DNA of 64,000 bases, from contig CAZTDD010000015.1 of assembly GCA_964612675.1 (NCBI GenBank), positions 6,300 to 70,299 of the forward strand. Direction: 5' to 3'. This document shows, piece by piece, positions 215 to 40,416 of this stretch; positions within the stretch are counted from its first letter, which is position 1, and each line of letters begins with the position of its first letter. The notes below the pieces were generated by a model that ran no database searches, was not told where the DNA came from, and saw only the letters and a list, made by a program, of their open reading frames with translations. The translations under genes were made by a program, and so were the position numbers. Source of the stretch: an uncultured bacterium. GTDB lineage: Bacteria > Hinthialibacterota > Hinthialibacteria > Hinthialibacterales > JAKPRU01.

Positions 215-565
215 ATGGTTGATCGTCCACGTCTTATCGAACGTCCGTGGGGAAGGTACCGGGAGTATGCCCGTAACGAGCCCTGCACGGTTTGGATTGT
301 CGAAATGAAGCCGGGGGAAGAGGGCAGCCTGCAGTCGCATCAGAACTTCGACGAACTCTGGATCATGCTGACGGATGGAGCGGAGGTTACTCTTGATGAG
401 AAGGTTCTCCAGCCGAAAGCGCAAGAGGAGATCTTCATTCCGCGTGGAACCAAACATCGTCTGCGGAATCCCAGTAAGGAATTGATCCGTATGATGGAAG
501 TCGCGTACGGCAATGTTCAGGATGACGACAAAGTGCGGTATGACGACAAATACGGTCGGGACTAA
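215..565 (+). CDS. cupin-domain protein (small RmlC-like cupin)
   Basis: 116-aa ORF with double-stranded beta-helix-like motifs (PGEEGSLQSHQNFDELWIML..., IPRGTKHRL). AAAGGA RBS about 8 nt upstream of the ATG. Confidence 0.5.
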   Translation: MVDRPRLIERPWGRYREYARNEPCTVWIVEMKPGEEGSLQSHQNFDELWIMLTDGAEVTLDEKVLQPKAQEEIFIPRGTKHRLRNPSKELIRMMEVAYGNVQDDDKVRYDDKYGRD

Positions 566-592
566 TACGATCCTGGATTCGACGGAAATTCG

Positions 593-1567: not shown

Positions 1568-1653
1568 TCTTTTTTTATGATTCTCAACAAGGGATCGCCC
1601 GCTTGAGGGATTGCCGCGACAATGTATAAAACAAATGTATAAAACATATGCGT

Positions 1654-2277: not shown

Positions 2278-2339
2278 TCGACGGCCTCCGTAATCGATGC
2301 CCTTAAGTCGGGGACGGCAAAACGGGCTGAATAAATCGA

Positions 2340-2865
2340 AAGCAGCTGCGATTTACAGAGCGCATCAGGGAGGGCGAAGCTCCAGGGAGGGCGAAGCTCC
2401 TGGGAGGGCGAAGCTCCTGCTGAGCCGATTCGTTCTTCTTTCGGCTCGTCGGGAGACTCGCCCTCCCAATAGACTGACGGTGCAGCAAAAAGTCGGGAGA
2501 GCTCTTCTCCCTCTCCCGGGGGGAGAGGGCCGGGGTGAGGGATCTTTGCATTTTGCGTCACCCCTCCCTCTGTACCTAATGAACTCCTGTCATCACAAAA
2601 ACCTTTTGCCTCTGCTTGATTTGCTGTCTCTGGCGAATACACAAGCGAATAATAATAGCCGAATCCAGTGCAATGATCGCCCCTCACCCTAACCCTCTCC
2701 CGGGGGGAGAGGGAACTTCCGATGCCAACTTCCGACTTTTTGCGACGGCATCCCTCTTGGGGGAGAAGACGCTGCAGACACGCTCGTCTTGAGCGACCGG
2801 GCACATGGGTAACACTTTTCCTCCCCCGAAGATCGGGGGAGGTGTAGGAGGGGGTTGAAATCTCT
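2340..2865. repeat. mosaic cluster of short palindromic interspersed repeats (REP/BIME-like)
   Basis: Contains a 17-bp tandem repeat x3 (2368-2418, gggagggcgaagctccW) that pairs with an inverted copy at 2442-2467 to form a roughly 26-bp stem hairpin. The palindrome ccctctccc-ggg-gggagaggg is at 2509-2529, with a near copy at 2694-2713. The palindrome cctcccccgaagatcgggggagg at 2819-2841 is followed by the gtaggagggggttgaaatc module. All have copies elsewhere in the window. Confidence 0.8.
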
Positions 2866-2909
2866 TTCGTGGACTTTTCGCCGTACCGTCATAGACTCTC
2901 CATGTCCCG

Positions 2910-4449
2910 TTACCGAATCATCCACTCCTCGATCAACGTCGGTGGACCGCCGAGATTAAGAACCCCATAGCTCGATTCCACGTGCGGTGTGCCTTGCCAG
3001 CGCAATTGGGAATCCGGCTCGGCTCCCGCCTCATCGTCATCGTCATCATTGACTGCCATATTGATGCCTACCTTGTCGACACTTACCAGAGTTTCCTTCT
3101 TGAAACGCATCTCACCGACCCATTCGCCGTCCACAATCGTTGCCCGCGCCCACCAATCGTCGGCATCCGTTTCGCCGATCATGACAAAGTCAGCCGGTGA
3201 TGTATTGGAATCGCGGGTCGCGTTCCCGGCGGTGATTACATACTGACCTTCGATCAGATCGGGGCTGCCGTAACGATTGTTGCTGGTATCCTCGCCATGA
3301 TTGAGGTCGTGATCGATGAAAACTTCCATCGAATCGTCATTCCATGTATTCCCATTATGGGACCCTTCAGGCTCGGTATCGATCACGATTTCGTCGTCCT
3401 GTACCACGACTCCGACATAAAGCCACGTATCATCGTGCATGATGTACGCATCGTACGACAGATCCTCGGGGGAAATTATCAACTGGTTGGCAACGTCGAC
3501 CCCTTGAGAGGGGGTGACCGTTTGCACGTCCGCTTTCTCCCAATCGGCTTCGTCCATCACGCCATCGATGGTGACCGGTCCGCCCACCAGAGGAGCATTT
3601 ATCTCACGCGGCCCGAAATAGAGAGTGCCGTAAGTGGACTCGCGGTGTGCCTCTCCCGCCCATCGCATCTGGTATCGAGCGGTGGTCTCATCGTCGTCGT
3701 CATTCACAGCGACATTGAATCCGATTTTCGACCCTTTTGTGGGATTGCCGATCTTGGAGAGCTTGATCTTGAACTCGGCCTCATATCCGGTATCGGTCCA
3801 TTCCACCCGTCCGTACCAGTCACCATTCTCACCGAACTCAGGGTCGCCGGCTTCCTTATCGCGCCTCGCGTTCACCGCGGTCAGGACAAATTGGCCGCCG
3901 GTTGCGAACTCTCTGGCCTGATCGTCGGCGGATGCCTGCGTGAGCGGAGTATCAAACCGGCTGTAATCCCCGTCAATGAAAATCTCGACCGAATCGTCGT
4001 TCCAGGTCTGCCCGTCTTCACTCTCCGGGTCCGCATCATTGGCCGCGACCCAGTCATCGGTTACACTGACGGCCAAGTATAGATACTCGTCATCATAAAT
4101 ACTGTACACCTCATAGGAACAATCGCTCGTGTCAAACGGCATCTCATCCGGCTTGATAGATTCCACTACCCCAGTCTGAAGAACCCCTTCGTAGTTCCAT
4201 TCGTAGTCCCACCGGACGTACCAATAGGAACCGGAGGCGCCCGAGCTATTGGGAGAGAATCGCCATTCCTCTGCATCGATGAACCCGTCTATCGTTGGGG
4301 CTACCGTTCCTTGGTCAGCGTAAAACGAGACCGGTCCCGTGGTCATATACGGCGTTACAGCAGCGAATGAGACAAATGGTACAGCTGCGCACAGAGATAC
4401 AAACACAACCGCTTTGACTACGCCTGAAAACCGGATACCATTCTTCATG
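2910..4449 (-). CDS. secreted protein with two CBM9-like / DOMON-like carbohydrate-binding domains
   Basis: Signal peptide MKNGIRFSGVVKAVVFVSLCAAVPFVSFAAV. Two internal repeats carry the motif TIDGxxDxxEW ... LYLxVxVxDD ... NDDSxExFID. The six-frame ORF extends to 4583, but MKNG at 4449 is the plausible start. Confidence 0.6.
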
Positions 4450-4586
4450 ATGCTTTTCCCTTTCCACCGAGTTTTGTCTTGTAACTGCCGCATCCAGGAT
4501 ACCGGCAGGTAAGAAGACGGATTTGTGATGGAGTCGTACGATCTATTTCTCACGACGATACTCCACTTTGTGCACCATGTCAATCA

Positions 4587-4619
4587 CCTGGTGAAAGCCT
4601 GGTGAAAGCCTGGTGAAAC
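4587..4619. repeat. 11-bp direct tandem repeat x3 (cctggtgaaag) in divergent promoter region
   Basis: cctggtgaaag cctggtgaaag cctggtgaaac read directly. It lies between the CBM9-like gene (minus strand) and the DUF1559 gene (plus strand). Confidence 0.7.
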
Positions 4620-4805
4620 CCGAAATAAGGACTTGAACTTCTTGGATTTTCGGCGTAAAAAAAACACAGATGCCAGTGGCAGGTTGGGCATCTGTCGGCT
4701 GAACTCGGCACATGGGGCATTCCCGGAGCCGAATTCAGAGCAATCCAGACCTTGCAGGTCGCGGTAACGAGGTCGATACAAAGGTCTCAATCAAAGGAGA
4801 GAACA

Positions 4806-5378
4806 ATGCGAGCCGGCTTTACTCTTATTGAACTGCTCATTGTAGTGGCGATCATCGGTATTCTGGCTGCTATCGCTGTTCCCAATTTTCTGAACGCGCA
4901 AATGCGGGCGAAAATCGCCAATGCGGAGTCCGATATGCGTTCGTTGGATACTGCGCTTGAAATGTACCGGATGGACAACAATCACTACCCCCTCTGGCGG
5001 GATTCCAGCGGGACAAACGTTAACCCGGTCAATCGCCGTTTGATCCCTCTGACCTCACCGATCTCGTACATCAGCGCTGTTCCTCAGGATCCCTTTGTCT
5101 ACGGCCCGCCGGGCGCACGTCTCGACAACGCACAACACGAAGCGTATGTGACTTACGACTACATTGAATCTCAGTCCCAGTTCAACCACGGAAACATCCC
5201 CCTCGGTCCCGCGTGGCGCTGTTCGGAATGGCGTCTCAACGGCTACGGTCCCGATGGGACCAACGATGTGGCGGCGCTGACCTATGCTGCGTCCAACGGA
5301 TTGAGGAGCCGGGGCGACCTGATCCGCCTTGGTCCCAAAACCAGTTACGCATGTGATGACTCATGGGTCGGATTGTAG
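4806..5378 (+). CDS. prepilin-type N-terminal cleavage/methylation domain protein (DUF1559 family)
   Basis: MRAGFTLIELLIVVAIIGILAAIAVPNFLNAQMRAK. AAAGGAG RBS 6 nt upstream. The six-frame ORF starts at 4752, but the ATG at 4806 fits the RBS. Confidence 0.8.
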   Translation: MRAGFTLIELLIVVAIIGILAAIAVPNFLNAQMRAKIANAESDMRSLDTALEMYRMDNNHYPLWRDSSGTNVNPVNRRLIPLTSPISYISAVPQDPFVYGPPGARLDNAQHEAYVTYDYIESQSQFNHGNIPLGPAWRCSEWRLNGYGPDGTNDVAALTYAASNGLRSRGDLIRLGPKTSYACDDSWVGL

Positions 5379-5429
5379 GCGTACCCTCCACTGTGTATGT
5401 TGGTACCATCATTCTCAGAAAGGCAGGCA

Positions 5430-6014
5430 ATGCAGTTTCGGAAGTATTTCCAATCCACTCGTACTCCTTTTTGTCACGCATTTACTTTGATTGAACTACT
5501 GATCGTCGTCGCAATCATTGGAATTCTTGCCGCCATCGCGGTTCCGAATTTCCTCAACGCTCAGGTCCGGGCGAAGGTTGCCCGCGCGGAAGGGGATCAC
5601 CGCTCCATTGCGACCGCATTGGAAACGTACCGATTGGACTACAATATGTACCCCTATAGATCCGAATTATCCATCGGCTCGCGGTTGGAGTTCTACCGGC
5701 GTCTTACCACACCCGTAGCGTATCTTTCCAGCGGAGTTCGGGACCCGTTTTATAAACTCACGTCAAAAGACGAAGGGATTCCCTGGGCGGATTATTATCC
5801 GTTTCAGGATCCGGACTATACGGACCAACAGAAGATCTCCGGTTACTACGATTACATGCCGGAAGAAAAGACTCGCCGAAACCGATGGGTCTTGTTATCC
5901 GCCGGTCCCGATGGCGACTACGACAACTCACCGACAAGCTACCGAGGCAAAATCCCCTACGACAGCTCCAATGGGGTGGGCAGTTTCGGCGACATTATGC
6001 GCTTCGGTCCCTGA
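5430..6014 (+). CDS. prepilin-type N-terminal cleavage/methylation domain protein (DUF1559 family)
   Basis: MQFRKYFQSTRTPFCHAFTLIELLIVVAIIGILAAIAVPNFLNAQVRAK. The C-terminal SAGPDGDYDNS motif is shared with the other two paralogs. Confidence 0.8.
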   Translation: MQFRKYFQSTRTPFCHAFTLIELLIVVAIIGILAAIAVPNFLNAQVRAKVARAEGDHRSIATALETYRLDYNMYPYRSELSIGSRLEFYRRLTTPVAYLSSGVRDPFYKLTSKDEGIPWADYYPFQDPDYTDQQKISGYYDYMPEEKTRRNRWVLLSAGPDGDYDNSPTSYRGKIPYDSSNGVGSFGDIMRFGP

Positions 6015-27697: not shown

Positions 27698-27751
27698 GTG
27701 GTATGAATGGTGCATCCCCTTAAGCAAGGGCGGAAACAAAGGGAGATCATC

Positions 27752-29659
27752 ATGACCACAATCGACCGAAGACGATTCGTTAAGACAGCGGGCTTGACTG
27801 CTGCCGGTGCGGCACTGAGCGGGATGAGGATTCAGGGTGCGGAGAAAAGGACACAACGGCCCAATATTCTCTGGCTGACGGCGGAAGATCTGAGTCCGCA
27901 TCTCGGATGTTACGGAGATTCGTATGCTTACACGCCGAATTTGGATCGAATGGCCGCCCAAGGTGTCCGATACGATAATGCGTACGCGACCGCGCCGGTC
28001 TGTACCCCCGCACGCTCGAGTATCATCACCGGAGTTTACGCCAGCTCGCTCGGAACGCAACACCTGCGCGGTGAGATGCCACTCGCGAAGGATATCCACT
28101 GTTTCACCGAGTATCTGCGTGAATCGGGATATTATTGCAGCAATAATGTCAAAGAAGACTATAATTTCAAGACGCCCGACAATGCGTGGGATGAATCCAG
28201 CAATAAAGCGCACTGGCGGGGACGGAAAGCGGACCAACCGTTTTTCAGCGTGTTTAATTTCATGACCACACACCAAAGCCGTACGCGGTACCCGGCGGAG
28301 GAACTGGAAGAAGTCAACAAAACGCTTAAACCCAAAGAGCGTCACGATCCGGCCAAAGCTCCACTGCCGCCTTATTATCCCGATACACCGGCGGTACGAA
28401 CGAATGTTGCAGTGTTCTACACACAAGTGACTTTACTGGATAAACAGGTAAAGGAATTACTCGATCAGCTGGAGGAAGACGGACTCGCGCAAGATACAAT
28501 CGTGTTTTTCTACGGCGACCACGGCGACGGCCTGCCACGCGGGAAACGCTGGCTCCATGAAAGCGGGATGAAAGTACCTTTTATTATTCGATTCCCGAAG
28601 AAATATCAGCATCTGGCGCCCGGAAAGCCGGGAAGCGCTGTCAAGGAAATGATCAGCTTCGCCGATCTGGCACCAACCATGCTGAGTGTGACAGGAATCG
28701 ATATCCCGAATTATATCCAGGGAAGGGCATTCCTGGGCGAAGCGAAGAAACCGGAACCGGAATATTTGTTCGGCATTCGCGACCGTGTCGATGAAGTCCT
28801 CGAATTGAGTCGTTCCGTCCGAGATAAAAAGTATTTGTATATCCGGAATTTCTATCCCCACCGTGCTCGCATGCAGAGAAGCTTTTATGCGGAAATTACG
28901 CCGATTCGAAAAGAATTGCGCCGGCTCGATCAAGAGGGAGAGTTGTATGGCGATGAAGAATGGCTGATGCAGGACCATGTTCCTCCGGAGGAACTTTACG
29001 ATCTTGAGGCGGACCCGCATCAAATGAACAATCTAATTGATGCGCCTTATTCTTGGAATGTTCCTCAACGGTTCCGAAAAGAATTAATGAATTGGATTAT
29101 TGAAACGAAAGACACTGCGTTTTTGCCCGAGCAGGAAATGATCCGTCGTTCGAAAGGGGGATCGCCATACGATATGGCACGGAAGCCGGGCGTGTATCCA
29201 ATCGAACGGATTCTCGAAGTAGCGGATCGAATCGGACGAGGAAAAAAACATATCGCGGCTTTTCAGGAAGCACTGAAAGATCCGGATTGCGCTGTACGCT
29301 ATTGGGGAGCGAACGGCTTGGCTGCATCGGCGACGTTTAATCGAAACGCTGAACCGGCGATAGCGGATTTGCGTGAAGCGCTAAACGATGAATCCGCCCC
29401 GGTACGCTACGCGGCCGCCGAGGCAATGTGTAAATTGGGTCATGAAGATGAAGCCGTGCCGGTTTTGATCGAGGGGCTGGAAGATGACGATGTGAAGAAC
29501 AATTTGCATGCGTCCATGATTCTGATGGTCATCGGAGAGAAGGCGAAAGCGGCGGTTCCGCAGATGAAAGAGACATTGAAACGTTTAGAAGGACTACCGG
29601 ATCGCGCGTGGTATACGCGGGAGAATCTTCAGTTTATGATTGAGAAGCTGAGCGAATAG
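27752..29659 (+). CDS. TAT-secreted arylsulfatase-family sulfatase with C-terminal HEAT-like repeat domain
   Basis: RRRFVKTAGLTAAGAALSG TAT signal and the formylglycine motif PVCTPARSSIITG (CxPxR). The sulfatase core runs to about aa 450. The C-terminal AVRYWGANGL, PVRYAAAEAMCKLG and VKNNLHASMILMVIG segments look like HEAT/PBS-lyase repeats. RBS GGGAG. The six-frame ORF starts at 27707. Confidence 0.85.
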   Translation: MTTIDRRRFVKTAGLTAAGAALSGMRIQGAEKRTQRPNILWLTAEDLSPHLGCYGDSYAYTPNLDRMAAQGVRYDNAYATAPVCTPARSSIITGVYASSLGTQHLRGEMPLAKDIHCFTEYLRESGYYCSNNVKEDYNFKTPDNAWDESSNKAHWRGRKADQPFFSVFNFMTTHQSRTRYPAEELEEVNKTLKPKERHDPAKAPLPPYYPDTPAVRTNVAVFYTQVTLLDKQVKELLDQLEEDGLAQDTIVFFYGDHGDGLPRGKRWLHESGMKVPFIIRFPKKYQHLAPGKPGSAVKEMISFADLAPTMLSVTGIDIPNYIQGRAFLGEAKKPEPEYLFGIRDRVDEVLELSRSVRDKKYLYIRNFYPHRARMQRSFYAEITPIRKELRRLDQEGELYGDEEWLMQDHVPPEELYDLEADPHQMNNLIDAPYSWNVPQRFRKELMNWIIETKDTAFLPEQEMIRRSKGGSPYDMARKPGVYPIERILEVADRIGRGKKHIAAFQEALKDPDCAVRYWGANGLAASATFNRNAEPAIADLREALNDESAPVRYAAAEAMCKLGHEDEAVPVLIEGLEDDDVKNNLHASMILMVIGEKAKAAVPQMKETLKRLEGLPDRAWYTRENLQFMIEKLSE

Positions 29660-30011: not shown

Positions 30012-33000
30012 TCAGAAATCACAAAGCCGGGCAACATATTCCTTGCTGCCGTCATTCGCCCACGGGTCCAACTGATCGGGATCTTTTAACTGCTGGCCGC
30101 GTAAACGGTCGACGGCAAGAAACCCACAGGAGATATCCGGCAGAGCGGTCATGTCGCTCCAAAGTTTCTCGAACTGGGCCACCGGGAAAACATCCTCCTG
30201 CCCATGCCCCCAGCGCCGCTTCACATCTTTGATCGTCACATACGTCGGCATCCGACGGGCCATGCGGCGAACGGCGGCGGTGATCTGCTCCGGCGAACCG
30301 CTGAGATCCTTACGCTCCAATCCGAATCGCGCCAGAAACGCATCCACCTCTATCCACGTGGTCATCGAATTGTAGAATCGCAACCTCAGTTCATCCTGCT
30401 CACGCGGCTGCGCGAGCCCCTCCAGCAGACGGACTTGTCCGTTGACCCGCGCCAAGCCTCCTCCCCGATCCACGATTCGACGGGGTACCACTTCGAACGT
30501 GAGTTCGTTCTCCGTTCGCAGGTGATGTCCCAAGGCGCGCGGATTGAGATCCGCTCCCAGCGTGTCGATGTTGTGAAGCATAATCGTATCGACCTTCGGA
30601 TGCTCGTCCAGCAAACGAGCCAAAACACCGTTGCTGAGAAGATTCGGGACTTCATACCAGTGCCCCAGCGGACTCAGCCTCTGCAGAGGGATGTTGTCTA
30701 CATAGTCGCTTGCCTCGCCTTTCGACCGTGCCCACTCCATCAGGGCTCCTCGGACGGCCTCGCGTACTTTCTGCTTCTGTTCGTCCAGGATCTCCTGCGG
30801 CATCTCTTCCCATAAGAACAGCAAGTCCCGCACCATCGGGATTAGCCGCTGACCGATCGCCCTCCCGGGCGAAAGGTACAGCGGACCGCTGAATCCATAG
30901 GAATCGTTCAGAGCGAGATGTTTCTCAATCGCCTGATGTGTTAAGAAACTGGTCGAGACAATGTGAGGCAGAGCGGCTCCATACTCTTTCGCGGCACGCC
31001 GTGTTTTCGCCAGATGGATCTCCAGAAAGGTACGATGCTTCCCGGCCAGCCAGATGAACGGGTTAACCGCCTTCACAACCCCTGCCCCGGTCGTCCAGCG
31101 GCTTCCGACTCCGCCCGCCAGCGATAGAACAGCAACACGGCCATCCTGGAGTGCTTTCTCGCCGAGACGGGCGTCGTCCTTTGAATCGGAGTCGAGCCAC
31201 GTGACATCCGTATCGCGCACATCTTCAATCTCGGTCTCGACGGGCAAGCGATTGTGGGCCAGACCGATACGGCCCGCCCGCAGGTCGGACCGGATTTGTT
31301 CGTGTTGAACGGAATCGAAACCGTATTCCGCCTTGACTCGGGAGACCTCGGCATCCCATGCCTGCCGTTCGCTTTGACCGGCGGGGTCATCGGCGCTCAG
31401 TAAACTCGTGACCAAACTGCGCAGCAGCCGGTGGGTATCGCCGCTGTCGCGAACCTGGGAGGTCACATGGTCCAGCTCCGCCCGACGAGTCGATGAAATG
31501 GATGCGCGTTCCTGCCTGACCATTTCAGGGATCTGTAAGGCGTGGTAGCGAATCGGCATGACCGCGTCTTCCCCGATACGCAGCCGGGCAACGCTGCCCT
31601 CATGATTAGTGCGGAAATCATAAACCACAGGATCCATCGCAAACGGAATCGCGTCCTCGAGTTCACGTTTAGTTTCCGTCATGATGTCGAGGATCTCGTT
31701 ACGAAACTTGGCCTGCTGCTCGGGCCGCACAAACATCGCCATACCCCCGCCGGACATCCCCCCGAGCATAAGAAAGCCCCAGAAGTCCGGACCGAACCGC
31801 TTCGAAGCTCGTTCGATGATTGTTTCGGTGAAGTGATTGGTAACCCAAGGAATAATCGTGCGGAGCGGTCCCGTGAAGTTTCTGGTCGTGCTCGCCGCAA
31901 GCGCTTTTACGTCGCCGTTAGCAAGCGCCTTAAGAATGTCCTCGAAAATCCCGTGCAGAGCCTGACGAGCCTCCCATTCGATCTTTCCCCGCAGTAGGTA
32001 CTTCTCGGTGACCATTTCGAGAATCGGTCCGACGTTCTGAGCCATGCCACCGTGAATCAGGACCAGTGAGTTCGCCAGGCGTTCCGGCATTTCCGGATGA
32101 ATATCCTCCTCGCCGAGAAGTCGATGCCGTGGCAGCAGACAACCTTTACTGATTCCATATTCCGGATCACCCGGTTCGGCGGCTGCTCCGGTAATCACTT
32201 TGAGCCCGGGCCAAATCCCGCCGGAGTCCTGCCACCCGCCGCCCGAGCCGCCCAGCCACTCGCCGAGGATTGCCCGCGATGCGGCAAGACGCCTTTCCTG
32301 TTCCCCTAGTCCACCTTCAAGCGATGCCGTCTGACTTGTCGCCCGCATCAACGCAGCGATAATCGACGCCAGCAGGTTTGTGGACACAGCCAGACGCGAG
32401 CCTTTCGGGATGTCATTGACCTGCGTCACCAGCTCCAAACCCAGGCCCGGCCCGACAACACTTCCCAGAATATCTTCGATGGTCTGATTCGTACCTTCAA
32501 ATGAAGGCGGTATCAACCCGGACGCGATCACACCGGCCTTCAACAAACTCAGGTAATCGTTGCCGAAGTTGAAGAGATCGCTCAGATCGCTAACGTCTTT
32601 CGTTGCCTCCAAATCGATGCTGGTGAGTCGAAGCAGTGGCTCCGGGATAACACGAATGTACGTCTCGATTGGCGGCTGTATCTCGCGGTCTCTACCATAC
32701 ACTCCCAAATCAACCGAAATGTTCAGCACCCTCGCCCCCTCGGGGTAGTCCATCCCCAGGAAGAAGATGTCCGACCACCCACTGTGGCTCAGATCCAATC
32801 GAACGGGGGTGGTTTCGCGAAGGATCGGGTACAGGGTCCCGTTCCCGGGACGTTCCAGGAGCTCGCGCCGAATCTGAAGCGGATGATCGACCGAATGACT
32901 CACCCGGAACATCCACTGATTCCCTCGTGAGGCTCGGACACTTCGACGTACCTGATCCGCGAGAGCCTGGAAGGCGAGCTGGTGATAGGTCTCGGCAAGT

Positions 33001-33371
33001 GCGCTGCATATTGTGCCGTTGGGCCTCGTATCCTGTATCGAGGAAAGAAATATGGAAAGCGCCTCTTCGAAACGGCGGGACAACAAATCGGTATACCCTG
33101 CGTAGGGGATTTCTCCTGAATGCGTCACGCCGGAGGACTCTGTCAGATAAAATCGATGAGCAGCGAAGAGAAACAGGCTGGCACGGACCCGGTCATACAG
33201 ATTCTCGGCCTGAGAGCGAAACGTCTCCAGTTCATGGCAGGCCTCTAGCAGATCCTCTGCGGACATCCCTTCACACAATTCGCTGAACGGTCGGTCCCGG
33301 ATGTTCGGATCGGAGCTGGTAATCGTCTCGACAAACCGATTCATGAGCCCTCCCCCGGTTTGCCGGTGCAC
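30012..33371 (-). CDS. large bifunctional-looking protein: GHMP-kinase-like domain (fucokinase/glucuronokinase-like) fused to a C-terminal UDPGP-family (UDP-sugar pyrophosphorylase-like) nucleotidyltransferase domain
   Basis: 1119 aa. GHMP motif 1 PVRLDLSHSGWSD (nt about 32769-32807), motif 2 PKGSRLAVSTNLLASIIAA (about 32352-32408) and motif 3 GFLMLGGMSGGGMAMFV (about 31727-31778). The C-terminal third has a UDPGP-like G-loop VAVLSLAGGVGSRWTTGAGVVKAVNPF (about 31090-31136). The start overlaps the upstream GalU-like gene by 31 nt. Confidence 0.6.
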   Translation of the reverse strand: MHRQTGGGLMNRFVETITSSDPNIRDRPFSELCEGMSAEDLLEACHELETFRSQAENLYDRVRASLFLFAAHRFYLTESSGVTHSGEIPYAGYTDLLSRRFEEALSIFLSSIQDTRPNGTICSALAETYHQLAFQALADQVRRSVRASRGNQWMFRVSHSVDHPLQIRRELLERPGNGTLYPILRETTPVRLDLSHSGWSDIFFLGMDYPEGARVLNISVDLGVYGRDREIQPPIETYIRVIPEPLLRLTSIDLEATKDVSDLSDLFNFGNDYLSLLKAGVIASGLIPPSFEGTNQTIEDILGSVVGPGLGLELVTQVNDIPKGSRLAVSTNLLASIIAALMRATSQTASLEGGLGEQERRLAASRAILGEWLGGSGGGWQDSGGIWPGLKVITGAAAEPGDPEYGISKGCLLPRHRLLGEEDIHPEMPERLANSLVLIHGGMAQNVGPILEMVTEKYLLRGKIEWEARQALHGIFEDILKALANGDVKALAASTTRNFTGPLRTIIPWVTNHFTETIIERASKRFGPDFWGFLMLGGMSGGGMAMFVRPEQQAKFRNEILDIMTETKRELEDAIPFAMDPVVYDFRTNHEGSVARLRIGEDAVMPIRYHALQIPEMVRQERASISSTRRAELDHVTSQVRDSGDTHRLLRSLVTSLLSADDPAGQSERQAWDAEVSRVKAEYGFDSVQHEQIRSDLRAGRIGLAHNRLPVETEIEDVRDTDVTWLDSDSKDDARLGEKALQDGRVAVLSLAGGVGSRWTTGAGVVKAVNPFIWLAGKHRTFLEIHLAKTRRAAKEYGAALPHIVSTSFLTHQAIEKHLALNDSYGFSGPLYLSPGRAIGQRLIPMVRDLLFLWEEMPQEILDEQKQKVREAVRGALMEWARSKGEASDYVDNIPLQRLSPLGHWYEVPNLLSNGVLARLLDEHPKVDTIMLHNIDTLGADLNPRALGHHLRTENELTFEVVPRRIVDRGGGLARVNGQVRLLEGLAQPREQDELRLRFYNSMTTWIEVDAFLARFGLERKDLSGSPEQITAAVRRMARRMPTYVTIKDVKRRWGHGQEDVFPVAQFEKLWSDMTALPDISCGFLAVDRLRGQQLKDPDQLDPWANDGSKEYVARLCDF

Positions 33372-34333
33372 GTGGCAGCATCTTCGACCAACATCTCGGT
33401 CACCGCCGCAAGGACCTCATGTCGTTCGTCGCCCGCAAGTCCGAGGGCGACCTGTGCCCGCAAAAGACCGAGCCGCGCACCGATATCAACACGCCGCCCC
33501 TGTACCTCCAGCGCCAGATACTTCTCGCGTTGCGCCAACTCGGACATGCAGGGGGTCAGCTGATAGCCACCGTTCCGTTTATCGCCTCCGGAGAGTGATT
33601 CCTCCAATAGTTCGAAAATCCGTGGCGTAAGGACATTCATGCCAAAGATACAGAGGTAATGACCGGCTCGGAGCCCCGGCGTAAGCAATTCCAACTCCGC
33701 CTGGCTGATGGACGGTTTCTCGATAATCTTCTCAACCTGATAGAGACCGGGCTGGTCATGTACGCGCTTGCCGGTAAGTGTCCCATACCGGCCGACAAGG
33801 TGTTCCCGTGTGGGGCTGACCGCAGAGACCGAGCAGGCTTCTTTGCGAGCGAGGTCAACCAGCTGAGCGGCGCAGGATTTGCCGGGAAGAGTGGAAATAT
33901 ATACATGGTCGCTCAGCATCAGCAACATCGCCTGATCTCCAACGAAATCCTTTGCGCAGTGGACCGCGTGACCGAAACCGAACGGCTCGGTCTGGACGGC
34001 AAAATGAAGCCGTTGAAGCAGCTCATCGATACGTGCAGCCTGCAGAGCGGCCCAGTCGATGCCGTGATAGCCCTCCATCAGATTCTCGCGCAGCGCCCGA
34101 AACTGGTTCAGGTACTGAGCCTCGTCGCCAGGCGCGCAGATAACACAGATCTCTTCAATGCCGCTGCTGAGCGCCTCTTCCGCGATGATCTGAATCGCCG
34201 GTTTCGGCAGTCCGTCCCGGTCGATCAACGGCAGCATCGCTTTCTGAACCGTATCCGCCGCCGGAAACAGCCGCACACCCCGGCCCGCGGCGGTAATGAC
34301 CGCTTTTCGCACTTCCATCGCCGATACCTCCAT
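33341..34333 (-). CDS. GalU-type sugar-1-phosphate nucleotidyltransferase (UTP--glucose-1-phosphate uridylyltransferase-like)
   Basis: N-terminal KAVITAAGRGVRLFPAADTVQKAMLPLIDRDGLPKPAIQ matches the G-x-G-T-R nucleotidyltransferase (PF00483) signature. 330 aa. Confidence 0.8.
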   Translation of the reverse strand: MEVSAMEVRKAVITAAGRGVRLFPAADTVQKAMLPLIDRDGLPKPAIQIIAEEALSSGIEEICVICAPGDEAQYLNQFRALRENLMEGYHGIDWAALQAARIDELLQRLHFAVQTEPFGFGHAVHCAKDFVGDQAMLLMLSDHVYISTLPGKSCAAQLVDLARKEACSVSAVSPTREHLVGRYGTLTGKRVHDQPGLYQVEKIIEKPSISQAELELLTPGLRAGHYLCIFGMNVLTPRIFELLEESLSGGDKRNGGYQLTPCMSELAQREKYLALEVQGRRVDIGARLGLLRAQVALGLAGDERHEVLAAVTEMLVEDAATCTGKPGEGS

Positions 34334-34440
34334 GAATCCACAGGCTTCTCGTATAGTATGGGCTCGATGGTTCCACTACCAGAGCACCACAGCGCGCGAA
34401 CCGATGACGATTCACCCCGCTGCTCCAGGAGTTGACCCAC

Positions 34441-34467
34441 TGGTCCAGGAGTTGAACTCCTGGACCA
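34441..34467. promoter_or_regulatory. 27-bp perfect palindrome (candidate operator) in the divergent promoter region
   Basis: tggtccaggagtt-g-aactcctggacca read directly. It is preceded by a direct repeat of tccaggagttga (34423-34434 and 34444-34455). A TTGACA hexamer is at 34490-34495. Confidence 0.6.
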
Positions 34468-34545
34468 GCGGAACTGCCGCAAAGACTATTGACAGCGACG
34501 ACGGAATGACCGATGCTCCCGTAATCGTATTTAGGAGCGTGTCCT

Positions 34546-36360
34546 ATGGCGTTAACCGGTATCGACTACGCAATCGTTATCATCTACCTGATCGGAACTG
34601 TCTTGTTCGGTATCTATCTGGGTCGCCGGATTAAGACGGGGAAAGACTACTTTCTCGGCGGGCGCAAATTGCCGTGGTGGGCGATCGGCATGTCGCTGGT
34701 CGTTAGCGATATCGGCGCGATCGATATCGTCGGGATTGCCGGTTCCGCTTTCTTGTACGGAATTGTGATGGGCAACTTCGATTGGATCGGATGTGTGCCC
34801 GTTATGATCATTGCCGGGTTCATCTTTATCCCCATGTTCTGGCGGGCGAATGTAACGACGGTCCCGGAATGGCTGGGCAAACGGTATAACGTCGCCGTTC
34901 GCACGATATCTGCTTTGATTTGGGGGTGTTTTCTTGCCTGCAATCTAGGGATCATGCTGTACGCGACCGCCGTAATGCTGAATGTCCTGATGGACCTGAA
35001 TCCGAAGGCGGTCATAGCGACTACCGATACCACTGTAGCCGAGAACGCTATCGAGATCGTCGGACCCAAAAAGTACGACTATTTTCATGCGCAAACCGTT
35101 GAAGAAGCGATAGCGCTCATTGAGGAACACAAACCGAATTTCGTGTTGGTAGAAGAGGAATTCCCGTTACGGGAAGACCTGACCGGACAAATCGCGGGCC
35201 TGGGGATCGAAACAGAAATACCGACAGTGGATTTCGAATCCGAAGAGGCGCCCGTTTCTCTTTTGGAACGTATAGAAGCACAGGCCAGGCCGCCCAGCTG
35301 GCCGCTGATCTATTCAATTGTCTTGATGGGCGGGTTGATCGGTCTTTATACCCTTTGCGGCGGGCTGAGAGCAGTCGTGTATACCGATGTCATCCAATGC
35401 ATCGTGATGGTTCTGGGGTGTTTGTTCATTCTCTTCTACGGGATTCATCAGCTCGGTGGCCTCGGTGCTTTTGTCAGTACAATCCAACAGATGGGTGAGC
35501 GTACCGCGGATCATTTCAAATTGATCTTGCCCGCCGATACGGAGACACCGTATCCGTGGTCGGGCATTTTCCTCGGACTGGGCCTTGTGCTTGCCAATGC
35601 GTACTGGATCGGGAATCAAAGCATCGTCCAACGCTCCCTGGGTGCGCGTTCTGAGGCGGAGGCAAAGGCCTCGTATATGTGGGGCGCCTTGATCAAGGTC
35701 CTAATTCCCTTTGCCGTTGTCGTCCCGGGGATCATCGCGTTAGCGCACAATCCCCAGGTCACCGATGCCGATAAGGCGATGGCGACACTTGTCCGAGATT
35801 TGATGCCCACTGGAGTCCTGGGCATCTTTTTCGCGGCGTTTTTGGCAGCCCTGATGTCGAGTGTCGATTCCTGTCTCAACTCAGCGGCCACTCTCTGGAC
35901 CAACGACATCTATCGGCGGTTCCTGCGACCCGATGCAGACGATACGCACTATCTTGTCGTCGGACGGATCCTGACATTTTTCTTTATCATATGGGGCATT
36001 TTATTCGCGGAGTATTCAGCCAATTTTGAGAGTATCTATACGCTCATTCAAACACTGATGACCCTGTTCCAAGGCCCGAGCCTGGCAATCATAGTCCTGG
36101 GCGTTCTTTGGTCGAGGACCACCGGCATCGGCGCGCTTGTGGGGCTTGTCGGAGGATTGTGTTGCTCGAGCGGGATGTTGTTTGTCAACAGTTACGCCAC
36201 ACGGCCGCTTTTTCAAATACAAGATCCGTTTCTCTATATCGCGTGGTGGTCCTTTGTCTTCTCGATCCTGCTGACGGTTGTAGTCAGCCTGGTTACACCG
36301 AAAGAACCCCCTGAGAAACTGCGCGGTACGGTCTATCGTTATCAAGGAGGGAATGCCTGA
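34546..36360 (+). CDS. sodium:solute symporter family (SSS/SGLT-like) transporter with a roughly 100-aa hydrophilic insertion
   Basis: GIDYAIVIIYLIGTVLFGIYLGRRIKTGKDYFLGGRKLPWWAIGMSLVVSDIGA is the typical SSS N-terminus and at least 12 helices follow. A hydrophilic segment at about aa 145-250 (nt about 34981-35296) is not part of canonical SSS cores. Confidence 0.85.
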   Translation: MALTGIDYAIVIIYLIGTVLFGIYLGRRIKTGKDYFLGGRKLPWWAIGMSLVVSDIGAIDIVGIAGSAFLYGIVMGNFDWIGCVPVMIIAGFIFIPMFWRANVTTVPEWLGKRYNVAVRTISALIWGCFLACNLGIMLYATAVMLNVLMDLNPKAVIATTDTTVAENAIEIVGPKKYDYFHAQTVEEAIALIEEHKPNFVLVEEEFPLREDLTGQIAGLGIETEIPTVDFESEEAPVSLLERIEAQARPPSWPLIYSIVLMGGLIGLYTLCGGLRAVVYTDVIQCIVMVLGCLFILFYGIHQLGGLGAFVSTIQQMGERTADHFKLILPADTETPYPWSGIFLGLGLVLANAYWIGNQSIVQRSLGARSEAEAKASYMWGALIKVLIPFAVVVPGIIALAHNPQVTDADKAMATLVRDLMPTGVLGIFFAAFLAALMSSVDSCLNSAATLWTNDIYRRFLRPDADDTHYLVVGRILTFFFIIWGILFAEYSANFESIYTLIQTLMTLFQGPSLAIIVLGVLWSRTTGIGALVGLVGGLCCSSGMLFVNSYATRPLFQIQDPFLYIAWWSFVFSILLTVVVSLVTPKEPPEKLRGTVYRYQGGNA

Positions 36361-36647
36361 TGGCTGCACCAGTTACAGAGACACCTGTTCTTACTCCGAT
36401 CGCGGATTTCTTCGCGTCGATTCTCCGTGTGCCGGGTCAGATCCTTCGCGATCTGGCGGTTTCCATCGATGTGACCGTCGCCAAGGGAATCTTTATCGCG
36501 TATTTTGTCCTGTTGATCCTCTGGGTTTTATCGCTGCGGAAAGAGGAGGTCATTGTCACCAACGAACGCAAGGGAACAAGCGTCAGCCTGCGACCGTACG
36601 CCGTCCTTGCCCTTCTGTCGCAGGTGGTCATCTACTTGGTGTTCTGA
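36360..36647 (+). CDS. small membrane protein translationally coupled to the SSS symporter (possible accessory subunit)
   Basis: Its ATG overlaps the symporter TGA (cctgATGgct). 95 aa with two hydrophobic helices (IFIAYFVLLILWVLSL and YAVLALLSQVVIYLVF). Confidence 0.5.
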   Translation: MAAPVTETPVLTPIADFFASILRVPGQILRDLAVSIDVTVAKGIFIAYFVLLILWVLSLRKEEVIVTNERKGTSVSLRPYAVLALLSQVVIYLVF

Positions 36648-36747
36648 GCGGTGATGGGCATGCCTGTACTTGTCTGATCGAGAAGGTCGTATAGTCTCTT
36701 CGAGGCGCTTTCTGGTTTGAGAAACAGAATTGAAACACGGGAGCTCC

Positions 36748-38067
36748 ATGATGAATGAACGAGAACGAGATAGGCTAATAGCGGGTGTAAAGATAGTCTC
36801 TGCAATTCTCCGATGGCCGAGTGAGGAGGTGTATAAGAAGGTAGAAGAGTACAGAGAAAAAGAGAAAAAAAGAGAGGTGGAGGAATATCTAAAAGATGAA
36901 AGTGCCTTTGTCCGTCCGGAGATTTACTCTAATCTAATTGAACAGTACTACGGGCCGTGTTCATCAAACAAGGACGTCAAAAGATACGTTCTAAGAGTGG
37001 CGGACAAGAATATAGCGACTACGATTTATACGAAAAACCAGTTTGTCGGTCTCGCTTCACGACTGGGGGACAAGCCTGAGGACAGTCACGGAGAATTGGT
37101 GAACTCGGTCTCCACACCTCCCCTCGAAGATGAACCTGCAGAACACATCAAGGCATACGCTCCGAAAATCATAGAACGATTGGAAAGAATGGGCGTCAAG
37201 ATTTGGGACGCACCACTATACCGGATAATCGAGGATGAAATTGCAGGAAAGATTTACTTTCGCTTCGCGGAAACAAGATTCCTGACTTATCGTTATACTG
37301 CCGGCTTGCTTGAGGATGAATTGACCGACGCGCTTATCGAAAAGCAAGGCGACGTAAGTCGCGTGCTGGATGAGAAGGGCCGCGTCCTCAAGATCAGACA
37401 CGATCTGCTCCCAGACATAGGCTCGTTTACGGATTACGATTCGCGGCTCTGTTGCGGAGGAATCGGTGTCGTGTTTGCGTTGGCACGCGGTGAAGAATTT
37501 GGAAACGATTTCGTGATACCGTTGCAGATCAGATCCTCCAAGGTCAGTGACGGACGGGGGCGATTAGCTGTCTTGCCAAAAGCATTTCATCAGCCTGTCG
37601 TCGGAGACGACGCTGAAGCGAATGTCTTCTGGACCGTATTCCGCGAGTTGTACGAAGAAGTGTTCGGCGGCAGCGAAGTGGAGAAAGAAGCCACACGATT
37701 GAAGTATGACTGGTATGTCGACGAGTGCCCGCCGGTAAGGTATTTCTGGGAACATGACAACGTCTTCGATTTGGAGGTTACGGGATACGGGATAAATGCC
37801 GTCGGTGGGAATTACGACGTAGCTATTCTCCTTGCGGTAAAGGACACGTGGTACTGGGACACCTATGGCAAAGAAATGTGTAAGTCATGGGAATCGGGCA
37901 CGACAATTCTTGTATCAACCAAGAACAGACAACAGATCGAAAAACTTCTAACGGAAGGTCAATGGTCTAGTGAGAGCTTGTTTCAATTTGTCGAAGGAGT
38001 ATTGCGTCTAAGGCAAATAGACGAAACACGCGTTGATCTGCCGGATATGGAACGAACGTTAGGATAG
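36748..38067 (+). CDS. hypothetical protein with C-terminal Nudix-like fold signature (degenerate Nudix box)
   Basis: GGGAG RBS 6 nt upstream of the ATG at 36748. The N-terminus is a charged coil (EEVYKKVEEYREKEKKREVEEYLKDE). The segment VGDDAEANVFWTVFRELYEEVFGG (nt about 37603-37672) approximates the Nudix box Gx5Ex7REUxEExGU with one-residue indels, flanked by beta-strand-like GGIGVVFAL. Confidence 0.55.
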   Translation: MMNERERDRLIAGVKIVSAILRWPSEEVYKKVEEYREKEKKREVEEYLKDESAFVRPEIYSNLIEQYYGPCSSNKDVKRYVLRVADKNIATTIYTKNQFVGLASRLGDKPEDSHGELVNSVSTPPLEDEPAEHIKAYAPKIIERLERMGVKIWDAPLYRIIEDEIAGKIYFRFAETRFLTYRYTAGLLEDELTDALIEKQGDVSRVLDEKGRVLKIRHDLLPDIGSFTDYDSRLCCGGIGVVFALARGEEFGNDFVIPLQIRSSKVSDGRGRLAVLPKAFHQPVVGDDAEANVFWTVFRELYEEVFGGSEVEKEATRLKYDWYVDECPPVRYFWEHDNVFDLEVTGYGINAVGGNYDVAILLAVKDTWYWDTYGKEMCKSWESGTTILVSTKNRQQIEKLLTEGQWSSESLFQFVEGVLRLRQIDETRVDLPDMERTLG

Positions 38068-38114: not shown

Positions 38115-39227
38115 ATGTCTTTTGAAATAGCAATCGACGGTTCGTCCCTAACGAAAGAAAAAGCCGGGATCGGCTTCTATCTGGCTCGGCTGCTCCAGGC
38201 ACTGGATAAGCTCCCCGGCGATGAACGCTACACAATTCTCTCGAACAAAGCGGTTCCCGAGCTCGGCCTGTCGGAACGCTTCAACACTGACGTTCAATCC
38301 ATCCCGAGTACGACCCTCTGGGCACAAACCTATCTGCGTTTCCGGCTGAAATCACTCAAACCCGATATATTCCACAGCGCCTCGATCGGTATGCCGCTGG
38401 GGTACCGGAAACCGTCCGTCCTCACCGTCCACGATCTGGCGTTTCTCCATTTCCCCCATCAGCACCAACTCACCACGAGAAACGCTTGGAAGTTCATTGT
38501 TCCTCGGTTGATTCATCAGTGCTCGCATATCCTTACAAACTCCAACTTTACGCGTACCGAATTGATCCATCATCTGAATGTACCTGGGGACAAAATTACT
38601 CCCACTCCACTCGCCCCCGACCCGATTTTTCAACCAATTTCCGACAGAGAAGAGATCCAGCCATTCAAAGAGAAACACGACCTTCGGCGTGACTACATCC
38701 TTACAGTGGGCACACTCGAACCGCGCAAAAACATCCCTTTCCTGATGCGTTGTTTTGCATCGTGCGTCCGCGACAACCGCATCGACGGCGACCTGGTGAT
38801 TGTCGGCGGCAAGGGGTGGCTTTACGATGAGATCTTCCAAACAGAACGCCAACTCGACCTCGGAGATCGAATCAGATTGGTGGGCTATGTCGGCGATTTG
38901 GAGGAACTGCGTAAGTACTACTGCGGATGCCGATTCTTCGCCTTTCCCTCGCTGTTCGAGGGCTTCGGATTCCCGCCGTTGGAGGCGATGAGCTGCGGTG
39001 TGCCGGTTATCGGTTCGACCGGCGGCTCCTTGCCTGAAGTCATCGGAGACGGCGGCCTGCTGCTGAACCCGGAAGACGGCATGGCATGGGAGAAGGCCCT
39101 GACTGAATGGTGGAACACCCCGGACCTTTCCCAGTGGAGGGAAAAGGCCCTGCGTCAGGCAGCTGGATTCTCATGGCAGCGAACCGCCGAACAGACCCTC
39201 GAAGCCTACAGACGAGTCGCAGACTGA
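38115..39227 (+). CDS. glycosyltransferase family 4 (GT-B, group 1 glycosyltransferase)
   Basis: 370 aa. The C-terminal EGFGFPPLEAMSCGVPVIGS is the GT4 E-x7-E region, and the N-terminal GIGFY motif is present. Confidence 0.85.
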   Translation: MSFEIAIDGSSLTKEKAGIGFYLARLLQALDKLPGDERYTILSNKAVPELGLSERFNTDVQSIPSTTLWAQTYLRFRLKSLKPDIFHSASIGMPLGYRKPSVLTVHDLAFLHFPHQHQLTTRNAWKFIVPRLIHQCSHILTNSNFTRTELIHHLNVPGDKITPTPLAPDPIFQPISDREEIQPFKEKHDLRRDYILTVGTLEPRKNIPFLMRCFASCVRDNRIDGDLVIVGGKGWLYDEIFQTERQLDLGDRIRLVGYVGDLEELRKYYCGCRFFAFPSLFEGFGFPPLEAMSCGVPVIGSTGGSLPEVIGDGGLLLNPEDGMAWEKALTEWWNTPDLSQWREKALRQAAGFSWQRTAEQTLEAYRRVAD

Positions 39228-39294: not shown

Positions 39295-40416
39295 ATGGCT
39301 CTTCACATCGGCATCGACGGATCATGCATCATCGCCCAGAAAGCGGGGATCGGATTCTATGTTTCGCGTCTTCTACAGTCACTCGACGGGCTTCCCGGCG
39401 ATGAACGATACACCATTTTCACGAACAAATCACTACCCGACTTGAATCTCTCCGATCGCTTCACCATCGACCTGAGCCCCATCCGCAGCAGCACTCTCTG
39501 GGTTCAAACAATGCTGCGGCATCGACTCAGGAGAAGCCCGGTTGACGTTTTCCACAGCGGTTCCATCGGTGTCCCGCTCGGATACCGGGGAAAGACGATC
39601 ATTACGGTCCATGACTTAGCATACCTTCACTATCCGGCTCAAAAGGACATTGCAACCCGAATCCTATGGACATTCTTCGTCCCTCGGATGATCCGCCAGG
39701 CGAACCATATTCTGACCGATAGTACATTCACAAAAGAGGATGTGGTCAGTCATCTGAATGTGCCCTCCTCACGGATCACAACCATCCATCTCGCCGCCGA
39801 TCCGGTGTTCCGTCCAGTGACGGACCGAGACAGACTCGAAGAATTCCGCAAAGAGAACGGTCTAGAACGCGATTACATCTTGTTCGTCGGCACTCTTGAG
39901 CCGCGAAAGAACCTCCCGTTCTTGATGCGATGCTTCGCGGAATGTGTCCGTGAGAATAAGATCGACGGGGATCTTGTCATCGCCGGCAAACGCGGCTGGC
40001 TGTGTGAAGAGATCTTCAGAACTGCGGAAGGTCTGGAGATGGGCGAACGCATCCGGCTGATGGGCTATGTGCCCGATCAAGAACATCTGCGTCTCCTCTA
40101 TTGTGGCGCGCGCTTCTTCGTTCTGCCTTCCCTGTTGGAGGGCTTTGGATTGCCGCCATTGGAGGCAATGAACTGCGGCGTCCCTGTAATCGCCTCCAAT
40201 CGCGGATCGCTGCCTGAAGTGGTTGGAGATGCAGGATTACTTCTTGATGCGACAGATGAAGGCGCCTGGAAAGAAGCGATCGTTCGCTGGTGGAACGAAT
40301 CGGACCTGAGCGGGTGGCGAGAAAAATCCCTGCGTCGCGCGGCGGAGTTCTCGTGGGAGCGGTGCGCAAAGCAAACCTTAGAAATCTATAGAGAGGTGGC
40401 TACGAAGAAGGAATGA
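39295..40416 (+). CDS. glycosyltransferase family 4, tandem paralog of the preceding gene
   Basis: 373 aa, about 60 percent identical to 38115-39227 by eye ([28 protein letters not shown] versus [28 protein letters not shown]). [20 protein letters not shown]. Confidence 0.85.

Follow-up and report, generated by a model that had tools for sequence, protein, structure and literature searches.

A two-gene cassette encoding a predicted sugar kinase/UDP-sugar pyrophosphorylase fusion and a GalU-fold partner across bacterial phyla

The stretch of DNA analyzed here (64,000 nucleotides of contig CAZTDD010000015.1, from an uncultured Hinthialibacterota bacterium; hereafter the window) encodes on its reverse strand a two-gene cassette made of a large fusion protein and a GalU-fold, NTP_transferase-like partner. 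The fusion gene (30012..33344, (-), 1110 residues plus stop) specifies a helical domain at the N-terminus, then a GHMP kinase and, beyond a helical linker, a UDPGP pyrophosphorylase, and the partner gene (33341..34318, (-), 325 residues, ATG at 34318) lies directly upstream. The interpretation favored here, with moderate confidence, is that the fusion acts first as a sugar-1-kinase and then, on the same chain, as a UDP-sugar pyrophosphorylase, and that the GalU-fold protein is a non-catalytic, ligand-binding or regulatory subunit. A preliminary description made from the sequence alone had proposed a fucokinase-type GHMP kinase joined to a UDPGP-family pyrophosphorylase, with a domain order and a pyrophosphorylase family unlike those of the bifunctional FKP. 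Profile hidden Markov models (HMMs), searches of solved structures and an AlphaFold2 model bear out both points: the kinase comes first, the UDPGP domain second, and the GFPP domain of FKP is absent.

The domain assignment rests on three sets of matches, which together show it to be correct. The Pfam UDPGP model (PF01704) scores 49.1 bits on the whole protein and 52.9 bits on the isolated domain, against a cut-off of 22. The NCBIfam model of FKP (NF009948) matches residues 187-556 in the numbering of the preliminary description (profile positions 613-942, E 2.8e-18); its score of 65-68.5 lies far from the equivalog cut-off of 721, only the kinase part is covered (profile positions 613-949), and the comparison finds no GFPP domain in the fusion. 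Finally, phmmer searches of PDB sequences, again in the preliminary numbering, pair residues 187-397 with Bacteroides fragilis FKP and residues 894-1013 with UGPases from plants and fungi. The nearest solved relatives are thus FKP and eukaryote-type UGPases. All other residue numbers refer to the 1110-residue protein (the preliminary number minus 9), and coordinates were checked by translation.

Structurally, the AlphaFold2 model, built with 146 homologs (44-72% identity to the window protein), has a mean predicted local distance difference test score (pLDDT) of 91.4 and a predicted template modeling score of 0.90; its confidence throughout predicts a fixed packing of the domains. Foldseek comparison of the model with the PDB retrieves the fucokinase part of FKP (9iip, TM 0.81, E 4e-18), the heptokinase WcbL (TM 0.82) and many UAP, AGX and UGP structures, so that both the two-lobe GHMP fold and the UDPGP catalytic-core fold are present. 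A profile of the kinase domain finds FKP over the whole domain (E 1.4e-13) and WcbL in the C-lobe only (E 2e-3). Structure prediction had been proposed as a check, and the resulting four-part division agrees with the HMMs and the fold searches. The N-terminal domain (residues 1-146, 32907..33344, (-)) is all-helical, belongs to no Pfam family and contains a conserved Arg-rich helix, QVRRSVRASRGNQWMF. It is followed by the fucokinase-type GHMP sugar-kinase domain (about residues 173-592, 31569..32828, (-)), by a five-helix linker (residues 593-692, 31269..31568, (-)) with the lowest conservation of the protein, 0.57, and by the UDPGP-family pyrophosphorylase domain (residues 693-1110, 30015..31268, (-)). 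The last stops soon after its catalytic core, leaving no space for the C-terminal domain of eukaryotic UGP and UAP. Like the N-terminal domain, the linker has no Pfam match, and the fold of the N-terminal domain was not placed by the whole-model searches, which are dominated by the two catalytic domains. Judging from the model, these two helical parts may hold the catalytic domains in a fixed arrangement.

Sequence analysis of the kinase domain reveals a strongly preserved active site with one altered loop. Crystal structure and mutagenesis of FKP identify Arg592, Trp599, Asp601, Ser719, Glu751, Gln761 and the general base Asp762 as catalytic or sugar-binding residues (PMC11982464). By alignment, these correspond to R182, W190, D192, S321, E362, Q372 and D373 of the fusion, and all seven are invariant in the 146 homologs. 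The claim that all three GHMP motifs are present stands for RLDLSHSGWSD, GGGWQD and GGMSGGGM but requires qualification for motif II, which is not canonical (PKGSRLAVST). Motif I (RLDLSHSGWSD, 32769..32801, (-)) supplies the equivalents of Arg592, Trp599 and Asp601, and its residues R182, D184, H187, W190, S191 and D192 do not vary. The segment from E362 to GGGWQD373 (32226..32261, (-)) carries those of Glu751, Gln761 and Asp762, and motif III (GGMSGGGM, 31740..31763, (-)), aligned to FKP GAGGGG, is invariant. Across the whole fusion, conservation peaks in the GHMP N-lobe, with a mean top-residue frequency of 0.80.

The variant phosphate-binding loop, motif II (32379..32408, (-), placed by the FKP alignment), differs from the FKP loop at two glycines: Arg and Ala replace Gly715 and Gly717 (PAGSGLGTSS in FKP vs PKGSRLAVST), a departure from the GHMP consensus P-x-G-S-G-L-G-S-S-A; a Ser and a Thr still occupy the positions of the metal-binding Ser719 and Ser720. 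Nine of its ten positions are invariant, and K314 is kept in at least 90% of the homologs. The loop is also the block of lowest pLDDT in the model, 67. Given the strong conservation of the N-lobe, the active site appears to be modified rather than lost. The retained FKP sugar contacts suggest that a pyranose is bound in a similar way, and a set of basic residues that have no FKP counterpart (the near-invariant K314 and the invariant R317, R334, R351 and R352) hint, weakly, at an anionic group on the substrate.

The pyrophosphorylase domain carries the UDPGP nucleotide-binding loop, the GH motif and the N-x-D motif. The loop LAGGVGSRWTTGAGVVK (31071..31121, (-)) corresponds to the signature L-x2-G-x-G-T-x-M-x4-P-K and aligns to LNGGLGTTMGCTGPK of UGPase. 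It is two residues longer than its UGPase counterpart and has VK for PK; G745, R749, W750, G753, G755 and K758 are invariant. The segments PLGHWYE, HNID and DRGGG align to UGPase motifs, with invariance of their key residues (GH895, N925/D927, D959/G961/G962). Near the C-terminus, invariance also picks out QQLKD (30081..30095, (-)), whose K1087 probably corresponds to the C-terminal catalytic Lys in the UGP and UAP motifs of this enzyme family. An NCBIfam scan of the isolated fusion domains returned FKP only, no model matching the UDPGP domain. Assignment of the sugar from the closest homologs was considered and rejected, FKP being the sole NCBIfam match and UGP, UAP and USP being roughly equidistant.

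The partner had been presented as a GalU-type nucleotidyltransferase. Its GalU fold is real, but it is no ordinary GalU: its TIGR01099 (galU) score is 147.9 against an equivalog cut-off of 326.8, its nucleotide loop is degenerate, and it is an obligate partner of the fusion. It matches PF00483 at 8.7e-17 and is co-linear with bacterial UGPases (YngB, E 1.5e-35). Its AlphaFold2 model has a pLDDT of 90.2, with low confidence in loop 11-30, and the top 50 Foldseek matches are all bacterial UGPases (YngB, TM 0.84). A database copy (P0360) is 100% identical, 325 residues long and begins at the ATG at 34318; PGAP names the orthologs only 'sugar phosphate nucleotidyltransferase'. The VEKP motif is present, and E205, K206 and P207 of its EKP, together with Asp142, Gln114 and Gly119, are invariant in 77 partner orthologs.

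The nucleotide loop has followed a different course, reading AAGRGVRLFPAADTVQK in the window as against AAGLGTRFLPATKAxPK in GalU. The Thr of GLGTR is absent from all 77 partners, which have Q, E, A or V in its place; the glycines are variable, and the loop Arg is kept in 64 of the 77. An eight-residue deletion removes the catalytic Lys (PKEMLP motif) from 42 of the 77, and some of these have also lost Gly-x-Gly and the Arg, the Akkermansiaceae loop reading AAGPTQQHLP. The GLGTR loop together with the catalytic Lys (T20, R21 and K31 of Escherichia coli GalU) is therefore not found in the partner family as it is in GalU. In E. coli GalU, the T20M/R21H substitutions lower Vmax about 1000-fold, and the low activity of GalF is owed to the same positions (PMC4643126). 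The partner is thus probably non-catalytic or regulatory.

An alignment of partners from loci L003-L082 splits the family cleanly into an L-type, in which the Lys-bearing segment is retained (Hydrogenedentota, Bacteroidota and Isosphaerales), and an S-type with the eight-residue deletion (Verrucomicrobiota, Chloroflexota, Phycisphaerae, Acidobacteriota, Armatimonadota and Myxococcota). The window partner is of the milder L-type (GRGVR...QK). An insert specific to the family, PGLRxGxYLCFFGMHVL, occurs in both types and is missing from GalU.

The four open reading frames (ORFs) of the preliminary description, at 30012-33371 (-), 33341-34333 (-), 34546-36360 (+) and 36360-36647 (+), are all present in the sequence at those coordinates. 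The fusion, however, does not start at the GTG at 33371 to give 1119 residues. Its identical database copy (P0001, 100%) has 1110 residues, and all 146 aligned homologs begin MxxLIETITS, which fixes the start at the ATG at 33344. With this start, the proposed 31-nucleotide overlap with the upstream gene shrinks to four nucleotides, an ATGA shared by the partner stop and the fusion start (33341..33344, (-)) in the sequence ...GGCTCATGAATC... This arrangement is typical of translational coupling, and four-nucleotide overlaps recur in Sumerlaeota, Acidobacteriota and P0128-lineage loci. In one locus (L084 6001-9291), partner and fusion form a single ORF, P0187. This was rejected as a natural fusion and is probably a frameshift artefact at the ATGA, because many genes on the long-read contig are split (adh_short into four pieces, MR_MLE into two) and a one-base error at that point would join the two.

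Genomic neighborhood analysis of 80 genomes from about ten phyla supports the pairing. The partner lies directly upstream of the fusion, on the same strand, in 78 of the 80, and the contigs of the other two hold too little upstream sequence. It is likewise directly upstream in loci L001, L085-L087 and L090, and loci from Sumerlaeota, Acidobacteriota, Phycisphaerae and a 47%-identical lineage are arranged alike. No other neighbor is conserved: all-against-all clustering found no flanking ORF family in more than 8 loci and hence no third conserved gene. A Pfam scan of 115 immediate neighbors gave 157 families, the commonest being Leu/Phe-tRNA protein transferase (4) and PGK (3), and neighbors elsewhere include DnaE, DnaA-DnaN-GyrB and ribosomal protein genes. 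The context survey suggested in the preliminary description thus confirms the upstream gene and nothing else.

That description had also made sugar uptake part of the module. On this explanation, the divergent SSS symporter would import a glycan-derived monosaccharide, the fusion would convert it to a UDP-sugar, and the upstream gene would be an ordinary GalU making UDP-glucose. The layout of the window is suggestive in this respect, with cassette and symporter diverging from an intergenic region of about 230 bp and sulfatase and GH109-like genes nearby, and two other loci have an MFS or sugar transporter in the vicinity. When 82 loci were surveyed by BLAST, however, none of the 80 genomes showed an SSS symporter next to the cassette, and transporters are not enriched among the 115 immediate neighbors (MFS/Sugar_tr, 2). 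The partner's sub-cut-off GalU score and missing Thr also count against this scheme, and its strict synteny points to a dedicated partner rather than a housekeeping GalU. We therefore regard transporter-linked salvage as very unlikely and reject the symporter as a member of the module. The sulfatase and GH109-like genes are real, but this glycan-degrading context is not conserved and often gives way to housekeeping genes elsewhere. Because partner synteny is strict and neither the symporter nor the glycan-degrading context is conserved, the unit is a two-gene cassette, and its position beside these genes is a local coincidence.

Three further analyses concerned the cassette itself. Its G+C content at third codon positions (GC3), 0.66-0.67, equals that of hisD (0.66), the glycan-degrading genes of the window being lower (0.51-0.60); recent horizontal acquisition was rejected, there being no compositional signal for it. 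In scans for promoters and terminators, the number of sites did not exceed that in shuffled controls. A PADLOC scan of fusion and partner matched no anti-phage defense model, and a defense role was accordingly rejected.

The fusion architecture, which had been presented as a novelty, is not rare. More than 8000 database proteins match it, and at least 597 species carry a relative (597 of 600 stretches examined, one genome per species); a library clustered at 50% identity contains 532 representatives at E <=1e-30, many of the listed matches looking like fragments. Carriers include Hydrogenedentota (about 71% identity), Bacteroidota (Hymenobacter, Spirosoma, Adhaeribacter and Pontibacter, about 62%), Planctomycetota (Singulisphaera, Tautonia), Verrucomicrobiota, Chloroflexota, Acidobacteriota, Armatimonadota and Myxococcota. 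Database names for the fusion are 'UTP--glucose-1-phosphate uridylyltransferase' (PGAP), 'galactokinase/mevalonate kinase-like predicted kinase' and 'hypothetical', an annotation that is generic and probably incomplete. A 1292-residue homolog of the same architecture is also found in the oxymonad Blattamonas nauphoetae (P0146, KAK2962578.1), probably by lateral transfer from bacteria.

Divergent arrangements occur in Omnitrophota, which have the N-domain/GHMP/UDPGP module without the partner. A partner-like domain within the giant proteins of this group was considered and rejected, as the partner-family HMM matched neither these proteins nor their neighbors. In P0224 of Ca. Kaelpia imicola (locus L088 8001-11741), the module is circularly permuted, with UDPGP first, then the N-domain, then GHMP. 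That both enzymes still occur together in this form counts in favor of the interpretation adopted here. A NUDIX-containing protein is encoded downstream of P0224, which itself belongs to a series of very large genes that match no Pfam family. The giant proteins P0138 (2318 residues) and P0147 (2939 residues, locus L083 6001-14820), both probably from Omnitrophota, embed the module; each has a ROK glucokinase-like domain (3vov, E 1e-9), and P0138 also has an inositol-monophosphatase-family domain. The gene next to P0147 encodes a 7976-residue protein with HAD and Glycoamylase domains. In locus L089, from an Omnitrophota metagenome-assembled genome, a gene for a 1857-residue UDP-glucose/GDP-mannose dehydrogenase-domain protein (42-5615) overlaps by four nucleotides the start of the divergent fusion homolog P0134 (5612-9643), an arrangement suggesting that in this lineage the homolog is functionally connected with UDP-Glc or UDP-GlcA metabolism. 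Together, these architectures favor a role in nucleotide-sugar or sugar-phosphate metabolism.

They also bear on an explanation modeled on NDP-heptose pathways, in which a mutase would be bypassed: the GHMP domain would phosphorylate C1 of a sugar 6- or 7-phosphate, a phosphatase would strip the distal phosphate, and the UDPGP domain would form the UDP-sugar. The joining of the module to glucokinase-like and phosphatase domains in the giant proteins would suit this sequence of steps, as would an FBPase_2 protein encoded two genes downstream of P0224, and the extra basic residues of the kinase (K314 and R317 in the P-loop, R334, R351 and R352) could bind an additional anionic group. The giant fusions are nevertheless weak evidence, giant mixed fusions being common in Omnitrophota, and no phosphatase occurs in the bacterial two-gene cassette or among conserved neighbors. 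We consider this scheme unlikely.

In the favored mechanism, the GHMP domain would use ATP to phosphorylate the anomeric hydroxyl of a sugar, possibly a sugar phosphate or uronic acid, with Asp373 as the base and Arg182 and the variant P-loop stabilizing the transferred phosphate. The UDPGP domain would then convert the sugar-1-phosphate and UTP into a UDP-sugar and pyrophosphate. The partner, which keeps the sugar-phosphate and uridine contacts (EKP, Asp142, Gln114), would be a non-catalytic subunit that binds a ligand or regulates the enzyme. This last is the weakest part of the proposal; partners of many lineages lack nucleotide-loop residues needed for catalysis, and GMPPA, GlgD and GalF are precedents for non-catalytic nucleotidyltransferase subunits. 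The analysis demonstrates the domain identities, the conservation of catalytic residues, the strict synteny with the partner and the lack of any conserved transporter, whereas the enzymatic activities, their sequence and what the partner does are inferred.

Several observations weigh against this interpretation. The Pfam model GHMP_kinases_N (PF00288) does not match the fusion and GHMP_kinases_C reaches only E 0.2; with a P-loop that departs at two glycines, kinase activity is not assured. The C-terminal domain is about as close to UGP as to UAP and USP, at 15-20% identity. The window partner keeps Arg21 and Lys31 and may retain some activity. Finally, identities of 55-72% between phyla and a location among housekeeping genes are not what one would expect of a salvage enzyme.

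The kinase-related points would suit a pseudokinase, in which the GHMP domain serves sugar sensing or regulation and the protein is a UDP-glucose or UDP-GlcNAc pyrophosphorylase as annotated. Besides the Gly to Arg and Ala changes of the P-loop and the missing PF00288 match, this explanation draws on the PGAP family name UTP--glucose-1-phosphate uridylyltransferase, on the translational coupling of P0134 to a UDP-Glc dehydrogenase-like domain protein in Omnitrophota, and on the housekeeping neighborhoods and very high conservation, which fit a core enzyme. Loss of activity, however, usually relaxes exactly those positions that are invariant here, namely the Asp at the general-base position, the counterparts of the FKP Arg and Glu and the Ser/Thr of the metal site, in an N-lobe that is the most conserved part of the protein; the near-invariance of the variant loop itself also suggests a functional site. 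A pseudokinase accordingly seems quite unlikely.

The residues retained by the L-type window partner raise a further alternative, an Isselbacher-type cycle with both nucleotidyltransferases active in opposite directions. The kinase and UDPGP domains would make a UDP-sugar, epimerization would occur elsewhere, and the partner would pyrophosphorolyze UDP-Glc, so that UTP and pyrophosphate are recycled. Such a cycle would account for the presence of two pyrophosphorylases beside a single kinase, and the conserved EKP, Asp142 and Gln114 of the partner, with Arg21 and Lys31 in the window, are compatible with it. The loss of the Lys-bearing segment from 42 of 77 partners, some of which also lack Gly-x-Gly and the Arg, and the lack of an epimerase among conserved neighbors make it highly improbable.

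For the favored kinase-pyrophosphorylase enzyme, very high conservation, housekeeping neighborhoods and an obligate, degenerate partner suggest a core, regulated step of nucleotide-sugar supply outside the textbook pathways. In its most elaborate and speculative form, to which we give only a modest chance, the cassette would encode a three-module 'UDP-sugar synthase' complex, composed of a kinase acting on a phosphorylated or anionic sugar, a eukaryote-type pyrophosphorylase on the same chain and a product-sensing pseudo-GalU that controls the enzyme. This would provide a core, phosphomutase-independent route to a major UDP-sugar in many Bacteroidota, Planctomycetota, Verrucomicrobiota, Chloroflexota and other lineages, rather than a salvage pathway.

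Beyond the cassette, several neighboring genes of the window have features of their own. The Pfam SSF match of the symporter (34546-36360, (+)) is split in two, the second part beginning at residue 251 (profile position 117). In the gap, residues about 150-250 form an acidic, soluble-looking insert of ~100 residues (…YDYFHAQTVEEAIALIEEHKPNFVLVEEEF…) without a Pfam match, which seems unusual inside an SSS core. The 95-residue ORF that follows (36360-36647, (+)) had been described as lying in frame with the symporter. It overlaps the symporter stop in a TGATG and is therefore in a different frame. With two hydrophobic stretches it could be a small membrane subunit; it has no Pfam match, and its sole NCBIfam match is marginal (E 0.002, far below the cut-off). 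Further along, a 445-residue ORF without a Pfam match (36730-38067) precedes two tandem paralogous GT4 glycosyltransferases of 370 and 373 residues (38115-39227 and 39295-40416, (+)), which also match the Pfam family 'GT4-conflict'. The sulfatase (27707-29659, (+)) has a C-terminal HEAT-repeat region (residues about 510-600) and a weak, sub-threshold match to a TAT signal.

If the predicted activities are confirmed, the fusion would be a natural single-chain route from sugar to UDP-sugar, unlike FKP in domain order and pyrophosphorylase family. It would be directly useful for one-pot chemoenzymatic synthesis of nucleotide sugars, and would correct the name 'UTP--glucose-1-phosphate uridylyltransferase' on thousands of proteins in at least ten bacterial phyla. 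According to a 2024 paper on engineered GalK/uridyltransferase chimeras, a natural bifunctional enzyme that turns xylose into UDP-xylose was not known (PMC11267548). Our literature search found no paper on this family or architecture, and UDP or UDPGP architectures do not figure in a 2025 survey of FKP evolution.

Among known systems, FKP of B. fragilis, with plant FKGP and Leishmania AFKP80/FKP40, places the pyrophosphorylase first, whereas the window fusion places the kinase first. The FKP pyrophosphorylase is of the GFPP type with a left-handed beta-helix and uses GTP; that of the window fusion belongs to the UDPGP family and presumably uses UTP. The variant P-loop and the separate GalU-fold partner are further differences. 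Sugar-1-kinases of plants (GlcAK, AraK, GalAK, GalK) acting with USP, and also Bifidobacterium USP, carry out the chemistry proposed here, but as separate proteins, whereas the window kinase and pyrophosphorylase share one chain. The heptose pathway of HddA/WcbL and HddC/WcbM likewise couples a GHMP anomeric kinase of the same structural subgroup to a nucleotidyltransferase. It differs in acting on heptose 7-phosphate, in needing the phosphatase GmhB, in yielding GDP-heptose and in using separate proteins.

For the pairing with a GalU-fold protein, a likeness is offered by zebrafish DrGKUP, in which a GHMP sugar-1-kinase is joined to a short nucleotidyltransferase of bacterial type (PMC3938481). 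Pyrophosphorylase activity of that domain could not be demonstrated in short in vitro assays (PMC3938481), which parallels the degenerate loop of the window partner. In DrGKUP, however, the nucleotidyltransferase is N-terminal, there is no UDPGP domain, the sugar is glucuronic acid and the distribution is limited to eukaryotes. GalF, GlgD, GMPPA and KONJAC, catalytically impaired nucleotidyltransferases that regulate active paralogs, resemble the partner in another respect, combining a nucleotidyltransferase fold and a degraded G-x-G-T-R loop with a genetic tie to an active pyrophosphorylase. Each of these pairs with a paralog of its own family, whereas the window partner is genetically associated with a presumed catalytic UDPGP-family enzyme fused to a kinase, and would thus exemplify a pseudo-nucleotidyltransferase paired with an enzyme of a different family.

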